A stretch of DNA of 64,000 nt from Paecilomyces variotii (taxonomy: Eukaryota). The stretch lies in the NCBI GenBank assembly GCA_004022145.1, contig RCNU01000001.1, one strand, 5' to 3'. The notes beneath the pieces are model-generated. The model searched no databases and was not told the origin of the DNA. It saw nothing but the letters and a program-made list of their open reading frames with translations. A program made the position numbers and the translations under genes. This document shows, in pieces, positions 54,533-64,000 of the stretch. Each line of letters begins with the position of its first letter. Position 1 is the stretch's first letter.

Positions 54533-57183
54533 ATGCATATCCTGGTAAGTTACTCTTGGCTTTTCTTTATCTCGTCGAGAGCAATCGTCCCTCGTGGAAC
54601 GTTCCCAAGTGCTCAAGGCTGTCTTCGTCTGAGGCGGTAACTAACAGACCCCTCCCCCGCGGTGCAGGTTGTCAACGACGACGGACCCCCGTCGAACGAG
54701 TCTTCGCCCTACGTTCACTCGCTCATTCACAATCTTCAGTCCGCTGGTCATGTCGTCTCCGTCGTCCTGCCGCACCAGCAGCGCTCGTGGATCGGTAAGG
54801 CACACCTTGTTGGCGCATCAGTGACACCGACGTACTTCCGACCCGGTACATTGCACCAGGACGATGGCACAGTACACCACCTACCGCGCGACGAAGATGA
54901 TGATGGCGACGAGTGGATCTTAATCGATTCGACTCCCGCCAGCTGCGTCCAGATCGGACTGTACCATTACTTCCAGGATCGGGGCCCTATAGACGTCGTC
55001 ATATCTGGGCCGAACTACGGACGTAACACGACTGCACTCTTCTCTTTATCAAGTGGCACGATTGGAGGCGCTATGGAGGCTGCTGTATGTGGGAAGAAGG
55101 CTATTGCTCTCTCATATGCCTTCAGTTCGCGGAACCACGATCCCGTCGTCATTGCAGAGGCGTCCAAGCACTCTGTGCGACTGATTGAGTACCTGTGCAA
55201 GAACTGGGCTGATGGTGTCGATCTCTACACCGTCAATGTTCCGCTAGAGCCAGGTGTCAGTGAGAATAAGATCTTATATACCAACATGCTAGATAACCGA
55301 TGGTCGTCCGGCAGCTGTTTCCAAGCCACCGATGCTGAAGCCTCTGGAGAAGGCCCAGAGGTTCAGGAGCACAAGCTTCGACTGGCCGGCGAAACTGGGG
55401 AACTCAGTGCGAACGGATCAGCGGACGGTGAGCCGAAAAAGAAGTCGAAGATTCAGCATAAGCATTTTAAGTGGGCACCCAACTTCGCGGACGTGTATAG
55501 AAGCGTGGAGGAGAGTCAACCTGGAAATGACGGCTGGGCAGTGAAGGAAGGGATGACTAGGTATGTTGGATCTTCTCGCGCTTCTTTCAGTAACGCGTAT
55601 TAATGGATTGCGACTAGTGTTACTCCTCTCAAGGCCAATTTCATGCATATACCCGGATTCACTCAGGGGGAGATCAAGTTGTGAGTGGAAATCTTGGGCC
55701 AACGAATCTTGACGACTTGCTGTTTTAAAGTACCTGGACGTTCTCCGTTATAGATATCTAGATATGATAATAGATATCCCGCTGTTGCTCTTTTATTTCT
55801 GCGAGCATTTTCTGCGAGCATTTTCACTCCGTCTCTTAACATGCGAGGTATAGTTCTGATTGTTTCCTTCTTCCTTCTAGATCAGGAACCCATGCACCGG
55901 CTCTCTACTACTTGGTGGAACTAGATTCCCCATACGTACAGCCACTGATAGAGAACGCATTGCGGAATCGACTACGAGGAACAGTCTGCCAGGCGATATC
56001 CTCCCTTTCCGATCTCCCGGACTCCTCAGCCCCCGTACTACAATACCGGGAATATGAGAAGTTGGATTTCGAACACGCCCTTGCACATCCTTCTTCGTCA
56101 TTGATCAACTCCTTTGTCATCCGCAAGGCTCTGATCCGGAAGCATTACCTTTCCAATACAGTTGCCAATTGGATTTCCAAACACCCTGATAGTATCCTCC
56201 GGAAACATGTGAAACCAGCCGTGGACTTTGAGGTTGACTACGCTGAATTTCTCGATGAAGCCCTCATGGAGGCTTACGAGCTGCGCGAGAGCTTGGAAGC
56301 TAATGAGAGCAAGGCTGAGCAAGATAAAGAGTGGTGGATTCTAAAACCAGGGATGAGCGATCGAGGACAGGGAATCCGCCTCTTCAATAGCGAGGCTCAG
56401 CTGCAAGCGATTTTTGAAGAGTGGGAGGAAGATGAATCTGATGAGGAGGATGACGAGGCCAAAGTTGGAGCTGAGCCTTCGGTGGATGAGAACGCTACCA
56501 AGAATGAACAGGGAGTCGTGACCTCTCAACTGCGCCATTTCATCGCTCAGCCTTATATCGATCCTCCCCTTCTTTTACCGTCTGCATCCAACAGGAAGTT
56601 TCATATCCGCACCTATGTCCTTGCCGCGGGTTCTTTGAAGGTCTATGTATTCAGGGAAATGCTGGCTCTGTTCTCTGGAGTGCCATACCAAGCACCTTGG
56701 GAGGAGGAGGATGAGGTGAGAGATCTTGCGAGACACTTGACCAACACCTGCCTTCAGGAAGGAGGCAGCGCCAACGAGGGCAGCGTAAGACGCTTCTGGG
56801 ACCTCGAAGACTCCGCACCTGGGCTACCTTCGAACTGGAAAGACAGCGTGTTTGACCAGATCTGTGCCATCACGGGTGAGATATTCGAGGCAGCAGCCAG
56901 AGGTATGCTTGTCCACTTTCAGACCCTTCCTAATGCTTTCGAGCTCTTCGGCGTGGACTTTCTGGTCGATGACGCTGGAAATGCCTGGTTGCTGGAGCTG
57001 AATGCGTTCCCCGATTTTGGGCAGACTGGCGAGGACCTTAAGGAGACTGTGGTAGGACGTCTATTTGAGGAGGTCGTGGATGTCGTTGTCAAACCATTTT
57101 TCGGACTTGGGGAGGTGCCGCGTCCCGACGACAGCATGGGCCTCAAGCTCGTTGCTAGTTTAGATCTTGGCAGGAAGATCTAG
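54533..57183 (+). CDS. SurE-like phosphatase + tubulin-tyrosine ligase (ATP-grasp) fusion, Pby1-like; introns ~54545-54667, 55561-55617, 55681-55880
   Basis: MHIL|VVNDDG, QRSWIGKAH, SGPNYGRN, SGTIGGAMEA, SVTPL (SurE); RKALIRKHYL, WILKPGMSDRGQGIRLF, RKFHIRTY, HLTNTC, FELFGVDFL, LELNAFPD (TTL); junctions checked in frame. Confidence 0.88.
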
Positions 57184-58550: not shown

Positions 58551-61500
58551 ATGGCTAGTGCCCAGATGGTGCAGGCAGGAGGTATTTCGCTCGCAATTCG
58601 GACACTTCACTCTTTTCTTCCACTCGTCGTAGCAGTCTCCTTTGCTATTTCATACATCGCCAGTGCCTTACGGAAGAACGACCATGGTGGGAAGCTGCAC
58701 AGAGGTCGCAGCAGGGAGATTGTTCTGTGGATGATCTCCACAGTCCTTACTACATACGTGAGTGTTGTCTTCGAGTTCACATTTGAAGCTGATATAAGTT
58801 TCTCGTTGATGGAGATTGCTTGAAATCCTGCTAACTGATAATGAAGTGTCTAGATTCTGTAATCCTCATCTATGTTGCCTTCTCCAACAATCGTGGAATT
58901 GTACCGCAGGATCATATTGTAAGAACTCTCAAATCACCAGTCAGATATCTTTCTTGATGGGATGTGAGGATGACTAAACCCAGCCTCCGTAGGTATTCTC
59001 GCTGAGTTCAATCTTGCTATGGATTGCACTGATTTTCGGTTTTGTCGACTATGCATCGACTCCGTGGTACCCGTTCTACGGTCCTTGGGTCACGTACATG
59101 GTCACCGAGGCCGCTCTGTTGGGACTGTCTACTCGCGCTCCACAGGAAATCACATATTATAAGACAATGATGTGGATCCAGATACTGCGCCTCTGTGTCT
59201 TATGTTCGCTACTCTGCTTCTCTTTCTCCTCTGACTTCCACAATAGGAGAGCAAGGAGAGTGAATACTGATGAGGAGACTGCACCCTTGTTGGCCCCTGG
59301 AAATGCCGATACCAACCATCTGGAATCCCCTCAACAATGTTCATTGGTGAACAACTACGAAACAATTAATGGAGAGGGGGATGGATCAAGTGACCTCCAT
59401 CATGATAGAGGGAAGAAGGGGGATCCAGAAAAACAATCTAATGTCCTCGAGGATTTCATGGTAAGTCCCTCTGAAGAATAGATAGGACCATCAACTTTCA
59501 TTTCGGACAGCTAAATGAAGTTAGTTTCTTCTTCCGTTCTTTTGGCCTAAGACAAAGCCTCGCCTGCAATTACTCTACGGCGGTGTAGGTTTGTGTTTAG
59601 TGGTCGACCGTGTACTCAACATCTTTGTTCCCATACAACTTGGTCTAATAACAAATGTCTTGAGCAGACAAAAGGGTAGGTTCTACGGTCCAGTACAAAT
59701 TTCTTTCTATTTCCTAATATCTCATTTTCCTGTATAGAAACGGTTCCTTGGAAGGAGATAGTGGTCTTTGCTGCACTCCGTTTCCTAGATTCCAGTGGCG
59801 GCGTCTCGGCCATCCGACGGTATCTATGGCAGCCATTAGAGAATTTTACATATCACGAGATCAGTACTGCAGCCTTCAATAAAATAATGACGTTGTCAAG
59901 CGACTTCCATGATAATAAGCATTCTGGCAGCCTGTGGCAGACTGTCAGCCGTGGGAGATCCATCCGCCATGTCGTCGACTCCGTCCTATTCCAAATTGGG
60001 CCGATGATAGTCGATCTTGTGTTGGCCGTGAGTATTCTCTACTATCTGTTCGACGCCTATATGGCTTTGATTACAGCAGCGGTCTTCATCTTCTACCTAT
60101 GGTCTTCGAGTAAGATCTTGGCCAAGCAAAAGGATAAACAGAGGCAATTGATATCAACTGTGGAGAAGGAATATGATGTGCTCTGCGAATCGACCTCCAA
60201 TTGGCAGACAATTTCGTACTTCAACCGGGTCGATTATGAGAAAGACCATTATTCATCTGCAGTCAAGAATCACATGAACTCGTCACTGACGTTCACATTG
60301 TGGTCTAACTTCGAGTCAGTAGCACAGTCATTCCTGCTTGTTGGCGGTTTGACGGGAGCATGCTTCCTTGCCGCATATCAAGTTGCTCAGGGGCGCAAGT
60401 CTGTAGGTAGTTTTGTGATGCTTCTAAGCTATTGGGCTCAGTTATCTGGGCCTCTCAGGTTTTTCGCCCATGGATTCTGCAACTTCGCTCTTGACATGAT
60501 CGACGCGGAGGAGCTAGTCCGTTTGCTGAGACAGAAACCAACCATTCATGATCACCCAGGGGCTAAGGAACTAGTGCTTGACCAAGGAGAAATTACGTTT
60601 GATAAGGTCTGCTTTTCTTATGACGGCCGGAGAAAGATCCTAAAAGACGTCAGCTTTCGTGTTCGTCCTGGTGAGACCGTGGCACTCGTGGGAGAGACTG
60701 GAGGAGGGAAATCAACTATATTAAAATTGATTTCACGCTTCTACGACCCAGAAAGCGGCAAAGTGACAATTGATGGCCAGGATATCCGTGATGTCACTTT
60801 GGACAGTCTCCGCGCAAATATCGGCATTGTACCTCAGGATCCAGCACTTTTTCACGACACTATCATCAATAACATTAGATATGCCAATCCTTCAGCAACT
60901 GACGAAGAGATATATGAAGCATGCAAAGCTGTTGCACTACATGACAAATTTCTAAGTTTTCCTGACGGGTATCGAACACTTGTTGGTGAGCGCGGAGTCA
61001 AGCTGTCTGGTGGAGAGCTCCAAAGAGTGGCTATAGCAAGGGTTATAATCAGAGATCCTAGTATAGTTCTTCTTGATGAGGCAACCAGCAGCGTGGACAG
61101 CAACACAGAGATGCAAATCCAAAACAGTCTAGGGAAACTCACTGCTGGACGCACAACCCTAGTTATCGCGTGAGCCTCATGTCCAATGGATCACAACTAT
61201 AGTACCGAAACTGACCAATGCTTACAGACACCGTCTTTCTACCGTGATCAACGCAGATAAGATCCTCGTCATTGATGCAGGAAATATTGTTGAAGAAGGC
61301 CCTCATGAGGAGCTCCTGAAGAGAAAAGGGAACTATTATCGCTTATGGTCACATCAGTCTAGCCTGAAATCCTCGATCCAGAAGCGCAAAACGGGCGATT
61401 CACAATCTACCGGAACGCTCCCTGCTAAAGGATGGCCCGGTGGAAGATCATCTAAAACTGGTAATGGTACAGAAACTGTGCGCGAGATCTCTGTAAGAAG

Positions 61501-62056
61501 CGACAGAGAACCCCTATATCACGATGACTTGAGTACAGATCAAGAGGAAGGTTATGGGGAACCAGATTTGATTCTCGATATTGCCTCAAACAGCTTTCTC
61601 GACCTCGACAAAGACCATTCGAAGATATCTTCTCTCAAGCCAGATGCTCCCGAATTTATCCCACAGCGCTTACAACGTACGGAAACCCCTGCTTCATCCG
61701 CTCTCTATGGGTATAATACAATCATCAAGCCCGCTAAAGACAATGCTGGGTCCAATCACATCGGAAAAGAGAACTACAGAGGAAAGGCTACAGAACATGC
61801 TGCATGCGACCATGGGCTAGACTCGAACGGGCAGGTCTCAGACAGCTTGCGTACAGTGACTAAAAGAAGCGACATTATTGAGGAGGCCAGCTCGACTACT
61901 GCCCGAGTTCGAGTAGCGACGGCTCTAGGTCTTCAGCGGGCTGTCAATTGCAGCACAGTGAACGCAGACGTGAGTCCTAGTAAAGCGCACAAACATAAGA
62001 AAAAGCGGATATCTCGAAAGAGATTATCCAAAAGTGAACCGCCTTCTCTCGGTTAA
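58551..62056 (+). CDS. ABCB6/Hmt1-like half-size ABC transporter with N-terminal TM extension and long C-terminal tail, multi-exon
   Basis: Walker [11 protein letters not shown]-loop VPQD, signature LSGGELQR, Walker B LLDEATS, IA|HRLST; TMD with FWP..LQ and LSSDFH motifs. Confidence 0.9.
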
Positions 62057-62571
62057 GACACCAAACATGTCAGCTCCGTGCCAGTGGTGACCAGGAATTC
62101 GGTATATGGACACTGATATTGTTAGAATGAGAATGCCCTCGAAAGCTAGTCTATCTCTCGGTTCGATGGAAGAGACCTTGGGACGGTACGAGATGCGATG
62201 CCATCATGCATGAGATGTTGACCCGTGTCGGCCAGTGGATGGCTGCTGTGAGCAAGGAAATTATTTAATTTTAATGAAGAATAAAATGTATGAGATCTTT
62301 GATGACTCGTCCCCTGTTTCATGCCTAAAGGATCGCTTGAAGTTGTACTATTCCTCAGATTTTCCAGAAGAGCATGCCATCATGCATGTAAAGACGAGCA
62401 TTTTCTGAGTCCGTCTCACCCTTTGTATTTGTTATCGAGATGGTGGTTAGTTAGTTATTTGCCTTCCTGACTAATTGACACGCGAAATCCACTTCGATCG
62501 CCCTATACAATGGAGGAACGACCAAACCGTCCCATACGGGAGCCACATAGCCATCACGTCCACCATGGTCT

Positions 62572-63898
62572 TCACCCAAATCTTTGCTTTGCTAATGCCT
62601 TGAGCCAGCCCATCGTCTCTTCTTCTTTTTGCCGATATCTCTGCAGTCGTTCCTCCCGCTCTGCTGCACGCGCCCGCATCATTTCCTCTCTTCGTAATTC
62701 CCGCTCGTTCTTTTTCCGCTGCTCCCTCTCTCGTTCTTTCTTCAATATATCGAGATCATTGTCCCCTCCCATGAGCTCAGCTTCTGGAGCGGCCTCCATG
62801 GGTGACCCGCCCCTAACTGTCCGAGCAAACTCCCGGTTTGCAGCTGCAGCTTCCCGCCGTTTCTCCATGCGCCGTTCATGGGTGCCGGGTTCGGCACGAG
62901 GAGCGACTTCATCGTTTATATGTCGCATCTCGGCTTTATGAGAACGGATCTCGGCACGGTGTTGCTTCTGCCGGTCTTCGCGAGCAGCGATTGCGTCCGC
63001 GATTGCAGTCGCTAGTGATGATCATTAGCAATCCATATCCTTTTCCCCCTTCGATGACCGACGTAGGCTCACCTCTCCTGATCTCTAAATCTTGTGTATT
63101 CGGGATCGTTGGACCAGGCCTTGCTCCGGTCATGCGGTCTTCTGATACCACTGACATGCCCGGGTGCGGAAGTTTAGGACCATAATCCTCATCTTCGTCT
63201 TCGTCTTCTTCCCTTTCATCTCTAGTATGCCGTGGTCTTCCGTCCTGACTCGCTCCATCGTAGTCTGGCGATGTTCGTCTCCAACCTGCGTTATCGCGCG
63301 ACGGAAGCGGTTCCTCTGCAGCGCTGCGGCGCGCTTTCTCGAGCGTGACAGGATCATACCATCCTTCAGCAAGTTCTCCACGGTTCCTAATATGTTAGCC
63401 TTTTTTAGCCTTTCCTCTCCCTCCTCATACCATCGTGGAGATATATATAGCGACACCCGAGTTAAGCGTCATCGATACGATGTAAAAGCCAGACCATCCA
63501 CACTCCGGAACTTACCATTTCCCAATAAAGCTCTTCCACCTTCCTTTCACTTCTTCATCGCTCAAATCTTCCATTATAATCCCCTTCTGTATATCAAGAT
63601 ACATCGCAAACATTGGTTCGAAGAGAGGCAAATCGCGCTTCGAGAGCTGTCGCGCTCCGAACGGTAACTCGACCGGCGCTGCTTCGCGACGAGCCTTTTC
63701 TGAGTGCCGATCATGTCTGTGACGGTGATGTGAATGATGATGATGATGATGATGATGTCTGCTTCGTCTGCTACTCTGTTCTGGAGAGCGGGAGCGCGAG
63801 GCGTGGTGGTGCTGATGACGGTGATGGCGCGAGTCTGGGGATGCAGATCGGGTCACAGAGCGATGGGAGTAGGAGTCGGAGCGCTCGCGATAGGACAT
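62572..63898 (-). CDS. Conserved fungal hypothetical RS/His-rich nuclear protein, 3 exons
   Basis: LPFGARQLSKRDL..F..YLDIQK...EVKGRWKSFIGKW|NRGELAEGWYDP, GPTIPNTQDLE, DEVAPRAEPGTHERRMEKR, ALAKQRFG*. Confidence 0.75.
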
Positions 63899-64000
63899 TA
63901 TTTCGCTCCTTTTTGGGTTTCGTTGGGGTGGGATCAAATTGCTTTTGTGCAAGAGATAATCTAACTGGAATTCGTAGCTATGGAATCTGGATGATGATGA

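Follow-up and report, generated by a model that had tools for sequence, protein, structure and literature searches.

The last exon of an ABC half-transporter gene of Paecilomyces variotii probably encodes a genuine, anciently conserved PAM2-type motif, a short peptide of the class that binds the MLLE domain of poly(A)-binding protein (PABP), here Pab1. The gene, of the ABCB6/HMT1 type, lies on the plus strand at 58551..62056 of the window, that is, of the whole 64,000-nucleotide stretch of contig RCNU01000001.1 (GenBank assembly GCA_004022145.1) that was analysed. According to the explanation favoured here, the motif sits in the disordered, cytosol-facing tail of a Pezizomycotina ABCB6/HMT1 subfamily, docks Pab1 and so brings messenger ribonucleoprotein particles (mRNPs) to the membrane. 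The steps of this explanation differ in strength. Judged from the sequence, binding of the tail motif to the MLLE domain of Pab1 is reasonably likely. The proposal of a tether, by which the transporter would hold mRNPs or translation at its own membrane, was already raised in the preliminary description of this DNA and is tentative to doubtful, depending on how specific the claim is made.

The motif occupies positions 61628..61663 on the plus strand, in frame in exon 6, with its core at 61634-61663. The bases tct tct ctc aag cca gat gct ccc gaa ttt atc cca encode S1 S2 L3 K4 P5 D6 A7 P8 E9 F10 I11 P12, numbered by PAM2 position, and the core corresponds to L913-P922 of the 1052-residue protein. 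The refined definition of PAM2 is --Phi-(P/V)-A--F-P, with Glu preferred at position 9 (PMC2854688). Leu is the usual residue at position 3, with Pro or Phe there on occasion; position 4 takes a polar residue, as a rule Asn and more rarely Ser, whose side chain touches Glu587 of MLLE; Pro or Val stands at position 5, an invariant Ala at position 7 and in most cases Pro at position 12; the Phe at position 10 is likewise invariant and is the main determinant (PMC2854688). The window peptide agrees with this definition through L3, P5, A7, E9, F10 and P12, the Lys at position 4 being the sole exception. The preliminary description had named a PAM2-like motif at exactly this place, and the designation is upheld, as the last exon encodes the peptide in frame and the peptide is conserved and in keeping with the refined definition.

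Conservation was assessed in three samples picked without regard to the motif: a last-exon search, a full-length search and a set of long-tail representatives. The last-exon search listed 120 proteins, 15 of which have more than 150 residues past the H-loop; the motif, written as [LWF][KR]P[DE]A[PK][EP]F[IV]P, is present in 14 of these 15. The full-length HMMER search (1.84 billion representatives, best 150 taken) was made with P0002, a P. variotii 'hypothetical protein' in NCBI naming that has 1030 of 1052 residues in common with the window product (97.9% identity). It returned the strict motif in 28 of the 150 and in 14 of the top 15, the exception being a fragment that stops inside the nucleotide-binding domain. 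A hidden Markov model (HMM) of the motif instances added nine degenerate or variant copies. Where at least 100 residues follow the nucleotide-binding domain (52 representatives), the core pattern occurs in 30 and the refined PAM2 pattern in 27. In 1000 shuffles of these 52 tails, the mean number of matches was 0.055 for the core and 0.12 for the refined pattern (about 0.002 per tail), with a maximum of 2. Inside the transporter body, the pattern was found in 2 of 142 representatives.

The conserved columns of 38 motif segments coincide exactly with the PAM2 positions, including the MLLE-contacting positions 3, 5, 7, 9, 10 and 12. The column counts are L21/W11/F6, K24/R10/N4, P33, A38, E36, F37/Y1 and P38, and the column information amounts to 2.5-4.5 bits in the ten core columns versus 0.3-1.6 in the flanks; these statistics overstate conservation, as the rows of the 38-segment, tail and 35-protein alignments were chosen as motif carriers, and the counts of carriers in the three samples are the fair measure. 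Among four Paecilomyces sequences compared over a 40-residue segment, all substitutions fall outside the 10-residue core. The idea that the motif forms an island of conservation across orthologues was thus borne out, the motif being kept in otherwise divergent tails. Together, these comparisons point to a genuine motif that selection has maintained over a long time.

Named carriers belong to eight classes of Pezizomycotina. These are the Eurotiomycetes (Paecilomyces, Talaromyces rugulosus, Thermomyces, four Onygenales and Cirrosporium), the Lecanoromycetes (Wetmoreana, Gyalolechia and Fulgogasparrea), the Candelariomycetes (Candelaria), the Leotiomycetes (Diplocarpon), the Geoglossomycetes (Geoglossum), the Sordariomycetes (many Xylariales and Amphisphaeriales, Diaporthales, Trichoderma and Colletotrichum), the Orbiliomycetes (Orbilia and Arthrobotrys) and the Pezizomycetes (Pyronema and Ascobolus). 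Within the Eurotiales, Paecilomyces, Talaromyces and Thermomyces have the motif, and no Aspergillus or Penicillium orthologue with it appeared among the named matches listed. The tails of Talaromyces and Thermomyces are reduced to a length of 21-30 residues and stop at the motif or shortly after it.

All Sordariomycete orthologues found carry KEGS[KR]LNP[GVD]A[PA]EFTP[RK]S at the same place, which is the textbook form xxLNxxAxEFxP. Three of their segments reach 31.6, 27.4 and 24.2 bits against the Pfam PAM2 model (PF07145; cut-off 20), and PF07145 already stands in the precomputed Pfam column of orthologue P0412. Sordariomycete orthologues with the canonical PAM2 (P0416-P0436 and P0412) are still named 'hypothetical protein' or 'heavy metal tolerance protein'. 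Because these orthologues have Asn at position 4 and pass the Pfam gathering score, the Asn-to-Lys change seen in the window is a lineage variant. The preliminary description had taken this change to weaken the match. This view stands in so far as the peptide with Lys stays below the Pfam cut-off; it does not stand in so far as Lys is a lineage variant of a motif that has Asn in the Sordariomycete orthologues and is recognised there by Pfam. The proposed scan with the Pfam model divides along the same line: the window peptide falls short of the cut-off, and the three Sordariomycete segments tested exceed it. Of the segments with Lys or Arg at position 4, the Pyronema peptide LKPDAKEFVP reaches 19.4 bits, and five others tested lie at 13.8-17 bits. 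PAM2 is the only Pfam family matched by the 38 segments, 32 of which do so at E<=10. The match emerges from a scan of short segments; with the entire 275-residue exon 6, no Pfam family was found at E<=10, presumably owing to the HMMER filters.

The distribution of the motif was followed on a FastTree phylogeny of 100 transporter bodies from which the tails had been removed, a quick, unrooted tree on which gains and losses are not formally separable. All 32 carriers fall into a single group of 52 rows (FastTree support 90, not starred). One member of this group, P0295, has a long tail in which the motif is decayed to FALNPDAPTFRLS. The pattern on the tree indicates that the motif is old and has been lost repeatedly.

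The C-terminal tail comprises 232 residues after the nucleotide-binding domain (61358..62053, plus strand), in accordance with the low-complexity tail of about 230 residues described earlier. It is rich in S, K, T, G and D, and contains just two F and one W. The basic patch noted near the protein end is likewise present in the translation, as 11 residues at 61991..62023 on the plus strand. The tail is predicted to be disordered. ABCB exporters have an established topology that places such a C-terminal extension on the cytosolic side, and the tail should therefore face the cytosol. An AlphaFold2 model of the last exon, based on a 35-row alignment, is confident for the end of the nucleotide-binding domain. 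Ten-residue blocks of the tail have mean confidence scores (pLDDT) of 42-60, except for a block at exon residues 141-150 with a mean of 74, which overlaps the motif at 136-145. The only secondary structure predicted in the tail is a three-residue helical turn at residues 146-148. A predicted confidence peak of this sort within a disordered tail is what binding motifs in disordered regions usually show.

Homologue tails fail to align outside two islands. An unconstrained MAFFT alignment of 35 full-length proteins leaves the tail consensus blank except for the PAM2-type core and RRxxSKSEP. In Paecilomyces, this second island reads RKRLSKSEP and is located at 62015..62041 on the plus strand, as seen in both the full-length alignment (A3) and the tail alignment. 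Its residue S269 is at least 90% conserved in alignment A3, a basic run precedes it in most aligned tails, and a pattern search found the island in 11 of 32 further orthologues. It stands at the extreme C-terminus in Paecilomyces and also occurs in lichen-forming fungi, Trichoderma, Diplocarpon and others. We take RRxxSKSEP to resemble a site for basophilic kinases, and it presumably also fits the 14-3-3 mode-1 pattern. Some longer tails (P0051, P0054, P0061, P0086, P0096, P0114 and P0115) contain two extra islands past SKSEP, approximately RRVSAPSDPP and an arginine-rich RRRRxRHWRxRN. Paecilomyces lacks both because its tail stops right after SKSEP.

Profile searches relate the motif to peptides of known structure. 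Against 177,635 distinct Protein Data Bank (PDB) sequences, the motif profile gave three matches at E<=10, all of them PAM2 peptides solved together with MLLE/PABC: Paip2 (1jgn_B, E 0.0029), the engineered 'superPAM2' (8smo_B, E 0.18) and GSPT1/eRF3 (2rqh_A, E 2.7). The 'superPAM2' peptide has the APEF core in common with the window motif. Against a collection of 5.8 billion proteins, the same profile gave 48 matches at E<=10, all 48 of which bear PF00005 and are thus ABC transporters. Since the collection matches are all ABC transporters and the PDB matches are all PAM2 peptides, the motif taken together with its flanks is particular to this transporter family, and the core by itself is PAM2.

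A suitable partner is encoded by the same species. Pab1 of P. variotii (P0129, 783 amino acids) has an MLLE domain (PF00658; about residues 679-757), with GKITGMLLE at residues 714-722. This core is invariant among 34 Pezizomycotina Pab1 proteins, in which most of the pocket positions given in PMC2854688 are also invariant when aligned by eye. Besides Pab1, the MLLE proteins of fungi include Rrm4. The Rrm4 machinery has most likely been lost in ascomycetes (bioRxiv 10.1101/467787), for which reason Pab1 is the likely MLLE partner. In view of this reported loss, the co-localisation with RrmA proposed in the preliminary description is doubtful.

How the tail would work can be outlined from these elements; we infer the binding, the membrane concerned and the consequence of binding. 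L913, replaced by W or F in other lineages, would occupy the pocket between MLLE helices 2 and 3. P915 and A917 would pack against the KITGMLLE helix, and F920 and P922 would occupy the pocket between helices 3 and 5. K914 would stand in for the usual Asn opposite the Glu of 'MLLE', with which a Lys or Arg at position 4 could still pair. Pab1, together with poly(A) mRNPs, would then reach the endo-lysosomal or vacuolar membrane that houses transporters of the ABCB6/HMT1 family. A more elaborate version would make the tail a membrane-anchored receptor of poly(A) mRNPs that combines the PAM2 motif with R/K-rich patches touching RNA and with RRxxSKSEP as a phospho-switch. In filamentous ascomycetes, which reportedly lost the Rrm4/Upa1 machinery, such a receptor might couple mRNA to the vacuole or endosome. 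The coupling could serve hitch-hiking and local translation, or an ATP-dependent delivery of RNA or RNPs to the vacuole resembling RNautophagy. This version is speculative and quite unlikely.

Several observations weigh against the proposal that the tail docks Pab1 and brings mRNPs to the membrane. Position 4 of the window peptide is Lys, where published PAM2 motifs have Asn or Ser (PMC2854688), and Trp stands at position 3 in 11 of the 38 segments, a residue that PMC2854688 does not list for this position. The window peptide reaches 14.2 bits with Pfam PAM2 (E 0.035), which is under the gathering cut-off of 20. The same is true of 35 of the 38 segments, for which the 20-bit cut-off was estimated as E<=0.00063 from the bits and E-value of the window peptide; 3 of 38 reach it. 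The Orbiliomycete orthologues have Tyr in place of Phe10, and the Arthrobotrys segment tested gave no Pfam match. A single 32-residue window peptide searched against the PDB gave 0 matches at E<=10. The expression used to collect the 38 segments demanded P12 and A, V or T at position 7, so that the 'invariant' columns are partly a product of construction. On the tree, a sister clade of 34 rows (support 99, starred), whose named members are Dothideomycetes and which may represent either a paralogue or the Dothideomycete orthologue, is entirely without the motif, as are 20 of the 52 rows of the carrier group (13 with tails shorter than 100 residues and 7 with longer ones). The motif was repeatedly lost, and it is therefore not essential to the transporter as such. 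Finally, the proven PAM2 of Ustilago Upa1 is dispensable for function (PMC4466420).

That the peptide is a functionless chance match in a low-complexity tail is extremely improbable. Short motifs do arise randomly in disordered sequence, and the Pfam E-value of the single peptide is just 0.035, but eight classes of Pezizomycotina retain the motif between diverging flanks, it occurs in 27-30 of 52 long tails where shuffling leads one to expect about 0.1, and the substitutions among the four Paecilomyces sequences all spare the 10-residue core. A conserved motif may, however, serve another cytosolic partner, such as a kinase, a phosphatase, a trafficking adaptor or a regulator of the transporter, in which case its likeness to PAM2 would be convergent or incidental. 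The departures at position 4 (K/R for N/S), the frequent Trp at position 3, the Tyr at position 10 in Orbiliomycetes and the sub-threshold Pfam score of the window peptide would suit this alternative. So would the semi-conserved flanks, with basic or Ser residues before the motif and R/Q-x-L-R after it, which PAM2 does not need. This alternative is nevertheless rather unlikely, as the conserved positions match the MLLE-contacting positions 3, 5, 7, 9, 10 and 12 one for one, an entire class, the Sordariomycetes, has the textbook LNPxAxEFxP with the tested segments above the Pfam cut-off, and the profile matches nothing in the PDB other than PAM2 peptides. Compared by eye, the conserved columns do not fit P[ST]AP, the Atg8-binding LIR, the calcineurin motif PxIxIT, the PP1 motif RVxF, SH3 class I or II ligands, or NPF.

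It is also conceivable that the motif does bind Pab1, as the favoured explanation requires at its binding step, and that binding regulates the transporter or Pab1 instead of tethering mRNPs. For example, the transporter's own mRNA could be anchored for repeated local synthesis, or Pab1 could be sequestered under metal or other stress. The RRxxSKSEP island, which looks like a phospho-regulated site, would agree with a regulatory role, as would the several lineages that lost the motif yet kept the transporter. The valency is also low, with one PAM2 per chain and two per presumed homodimer versus the four of Upa2 (bioRxiv 10.1101/467787). Regulation of this kind has a modest probability and is on balance unlikely. 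The docking of Pab1 by a PAM2-type motif stays the probable explanation.

The transporter gene comprises six exons with 1052 codons and a stop. Its model takes the ATG at 58551 and the reading frames from the window, and the GT..AG joints from public RNA transcript contigs. The spliced coding sequence has 3159 nucleotides with its sole stop at the end, and the product has 1052 residues. All exons are on the plus strand. RNA run X1, whose contigs show no differences from the window, supports exon 1 (58551..58757; joint 58757>58847), exon 2 (58847..58918; joints 58757>58847 and 58918>58993) and the start of exon 3 (58993..59459). The end of exon 3, at joint 59459>59524, is supported by both X1 and X4, the latter a metatranscriptome. 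Exon 4 (59524..59674) continues from this joint to 59674>59737, which is found in X4 only. Exon 5 (59737..61169) holds most of the transmembrane domain and the nucleotide-binding domain and ends at joint 61169>61228 (X1 and X4). Exon 6 (61228..62056; X1 contig) encodes the H-loop (HRLST), the end of the nucleotide-binding domain, the entire tail and the stop.

Contigs of X1 join 61169 to 61228 over a GT..AG intron and then run continuously from 61228 to 62500, and X4 has the same joint. Because an X1 contig is unbroken from 61228 to 62500, no intron takes out the motif, and the mature mRNA contains the tail. The preliminary description had considered that RNA might reveal the tail to be untranslated, and on this point the tail has come through in so far as it lies in the mature spliced mRNA. 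In runs X2 and X3, contigs traverse the introns unspliced and differ from the window; they may stem from DNA carry-over or a related strain and are uninformative on splicing. The X2 contig (10.3 kb), from a food-fermentation RNA library, spans the gene unspliced over 58636-62500 with 69 letters different, which suggests a related strain in the food-fermentation habitat, seen through either carried-over DNA or RNA that still holds its introns. An X4 contig joins opposite strands between 62114 and 62225, in the region flanking the gene on its 3' side. Directly upstream of the gene lies a 447-codon open frame (55840-57183, plus strand). On the minus strand, another open frame at 63512-64000 continues past the window end and contains an H/R/S-rich stretch with H runs and RSRS-like repeats.

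Upstream of the tail, the product matches Pfam ABC_membrane (E 1.1e-28; about 59803-60456) and ABC_tran (E 4.4e-35; about 60640-61089), both in exon 5 on the plus strand. The ATPase motifs are intact in the translation, namely Walker A, the signature LSGGELQR, Walker B (IVLLDEAT) and the H-loop HRLST. HMT-1/ABCB6 half-transporters have this layout, in which a single ABC transmembrane domain precedes a single nucleotide-binding domain. About 250 residues precede this core; they are hydrophobic-looking by eye in the translation, and the alignment to ABCB6 begins at query residue 250. The best single-stretch match in the PDB is human ABCB6 (E 5e-126; query 250-829 versus chain 248-834), which outranks plant ATM3, bacterial Atm1-type exporters and ABCB7. 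ABCB1 entries score above ABCB6 solely through matching twice. Several orthologues bear the automatic source name 'heavy metal tolerance protein'. The label 'ABCB6/Hmt1-type', given to the protein from the start, is confirmed by the human ABCB6 match and by these source names. Members of the HMT-1/ABCB6 subfamily are half-transporters with a hydrophobic N-terminal extension (PMC2944878); they are described as endosomal-recycling, lysosomal or vacuolar proteins that act in cadmium detoxification (PMC2944878, PMC6077975, PMC3360040, PMC6785578).

The motif class itself is known; the transporter is a new carrier of it, from a protein family in which none was expected. In the cited literature, the PAM2 carriers named are translation or decay factors, for instance Paip2, eRF3, PAN3, Tob and GW182, or else Upa1 and Upa2, which are peripheral proteins of endosomes. 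A full-text search, beyond whose reach most subscription journals lie, found no paper tying PAM2 to ABC, HMT1 or ABCB6 transporters. If the favoured explanation is true, an integral transporter whose PAM2 predates the divergence of the Pezizomycotina classes would be a new route for placing PABP, and hence mRNA, on an organelle membrane. Most industrial moulds and many pathogens of plants and animals belong to the filamentous ascomycetes, which reportedly lack the Rrm4 system of basidiomycetes; the motif would offer a concrete, mutable handle on the coupling of mRNPs to organelles in these fungi. The Pfam PAM2 threshold misses the variant with K or R at position 4, which is tied by orthology to canonical motifs, and this may matter for surveys of fungal motifs.

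Compared with the PAM2 peptides of Paip2, ataxin-2, eRF3/GSPT1, Tob and PAN3 (PF07145; PDB 1JGN, 2RQH, 8SMO), the tail motif is likewise a 12-residue peptide of a region predicted to be disordered, and it shares with them a hydrophobic residue at position 3, Pro 5, Ala 7, Glu 9, Phe 10 and Pro 12. It differs in having Lys or Arg at position 4, where known PAM2 motifs have Asn or Ser, and often Trp or Phe at position 3. Known carriers, as far as the cited sources describe them, are scaffolds, or factors of translation or decay, whereas the carrier here is a polytopic membrane transporter. The likeness to Upa1 and Upa2 of Ustilago maydis lies in a membrane-associated protein of the endosomal system that would offer PAM2 to Pab1 and might thereby link mRNPs to an organelle (PMC4466420; bioRxiv 10.1101/467787). 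Upa1 is peripheral via its FYVE domain and has PAM2 as well as PAM2-like motifs, the latter of which bind Rrm4 and are essential (PMC4466420; bioRxiv 10.1101/467787). By contrast, the carrier described here is an integral ABC transporter, and P0002 bears PF00005 and PF00664 only, with no FYVE, ankyrin or RING domain. Membership among endosomal mRNP adaptors of the Upa1 type is ruled out by the absence of FYVE from the Pfam record of P0002 and by the most likely loss of Rrm4 in Ascomycota. With the HMT-1/ABCB6 proteins (S. pombe Hmt1, C. elegans HMT-1 and human ABCB6), the transporter shares the N-terminal extension, the one transmembrane domain and the one nucleotide-binding domain. The solved ABCB6 chains (842-850 residues, aligned to residue 834) stop about 10 residues past the aligned nucleotide-binding domain, whereas the Paecilomyces protein adds a 232-residue tail, predicted to be disordered, with a PAM2-type motif and the RRxxSKSEP island.

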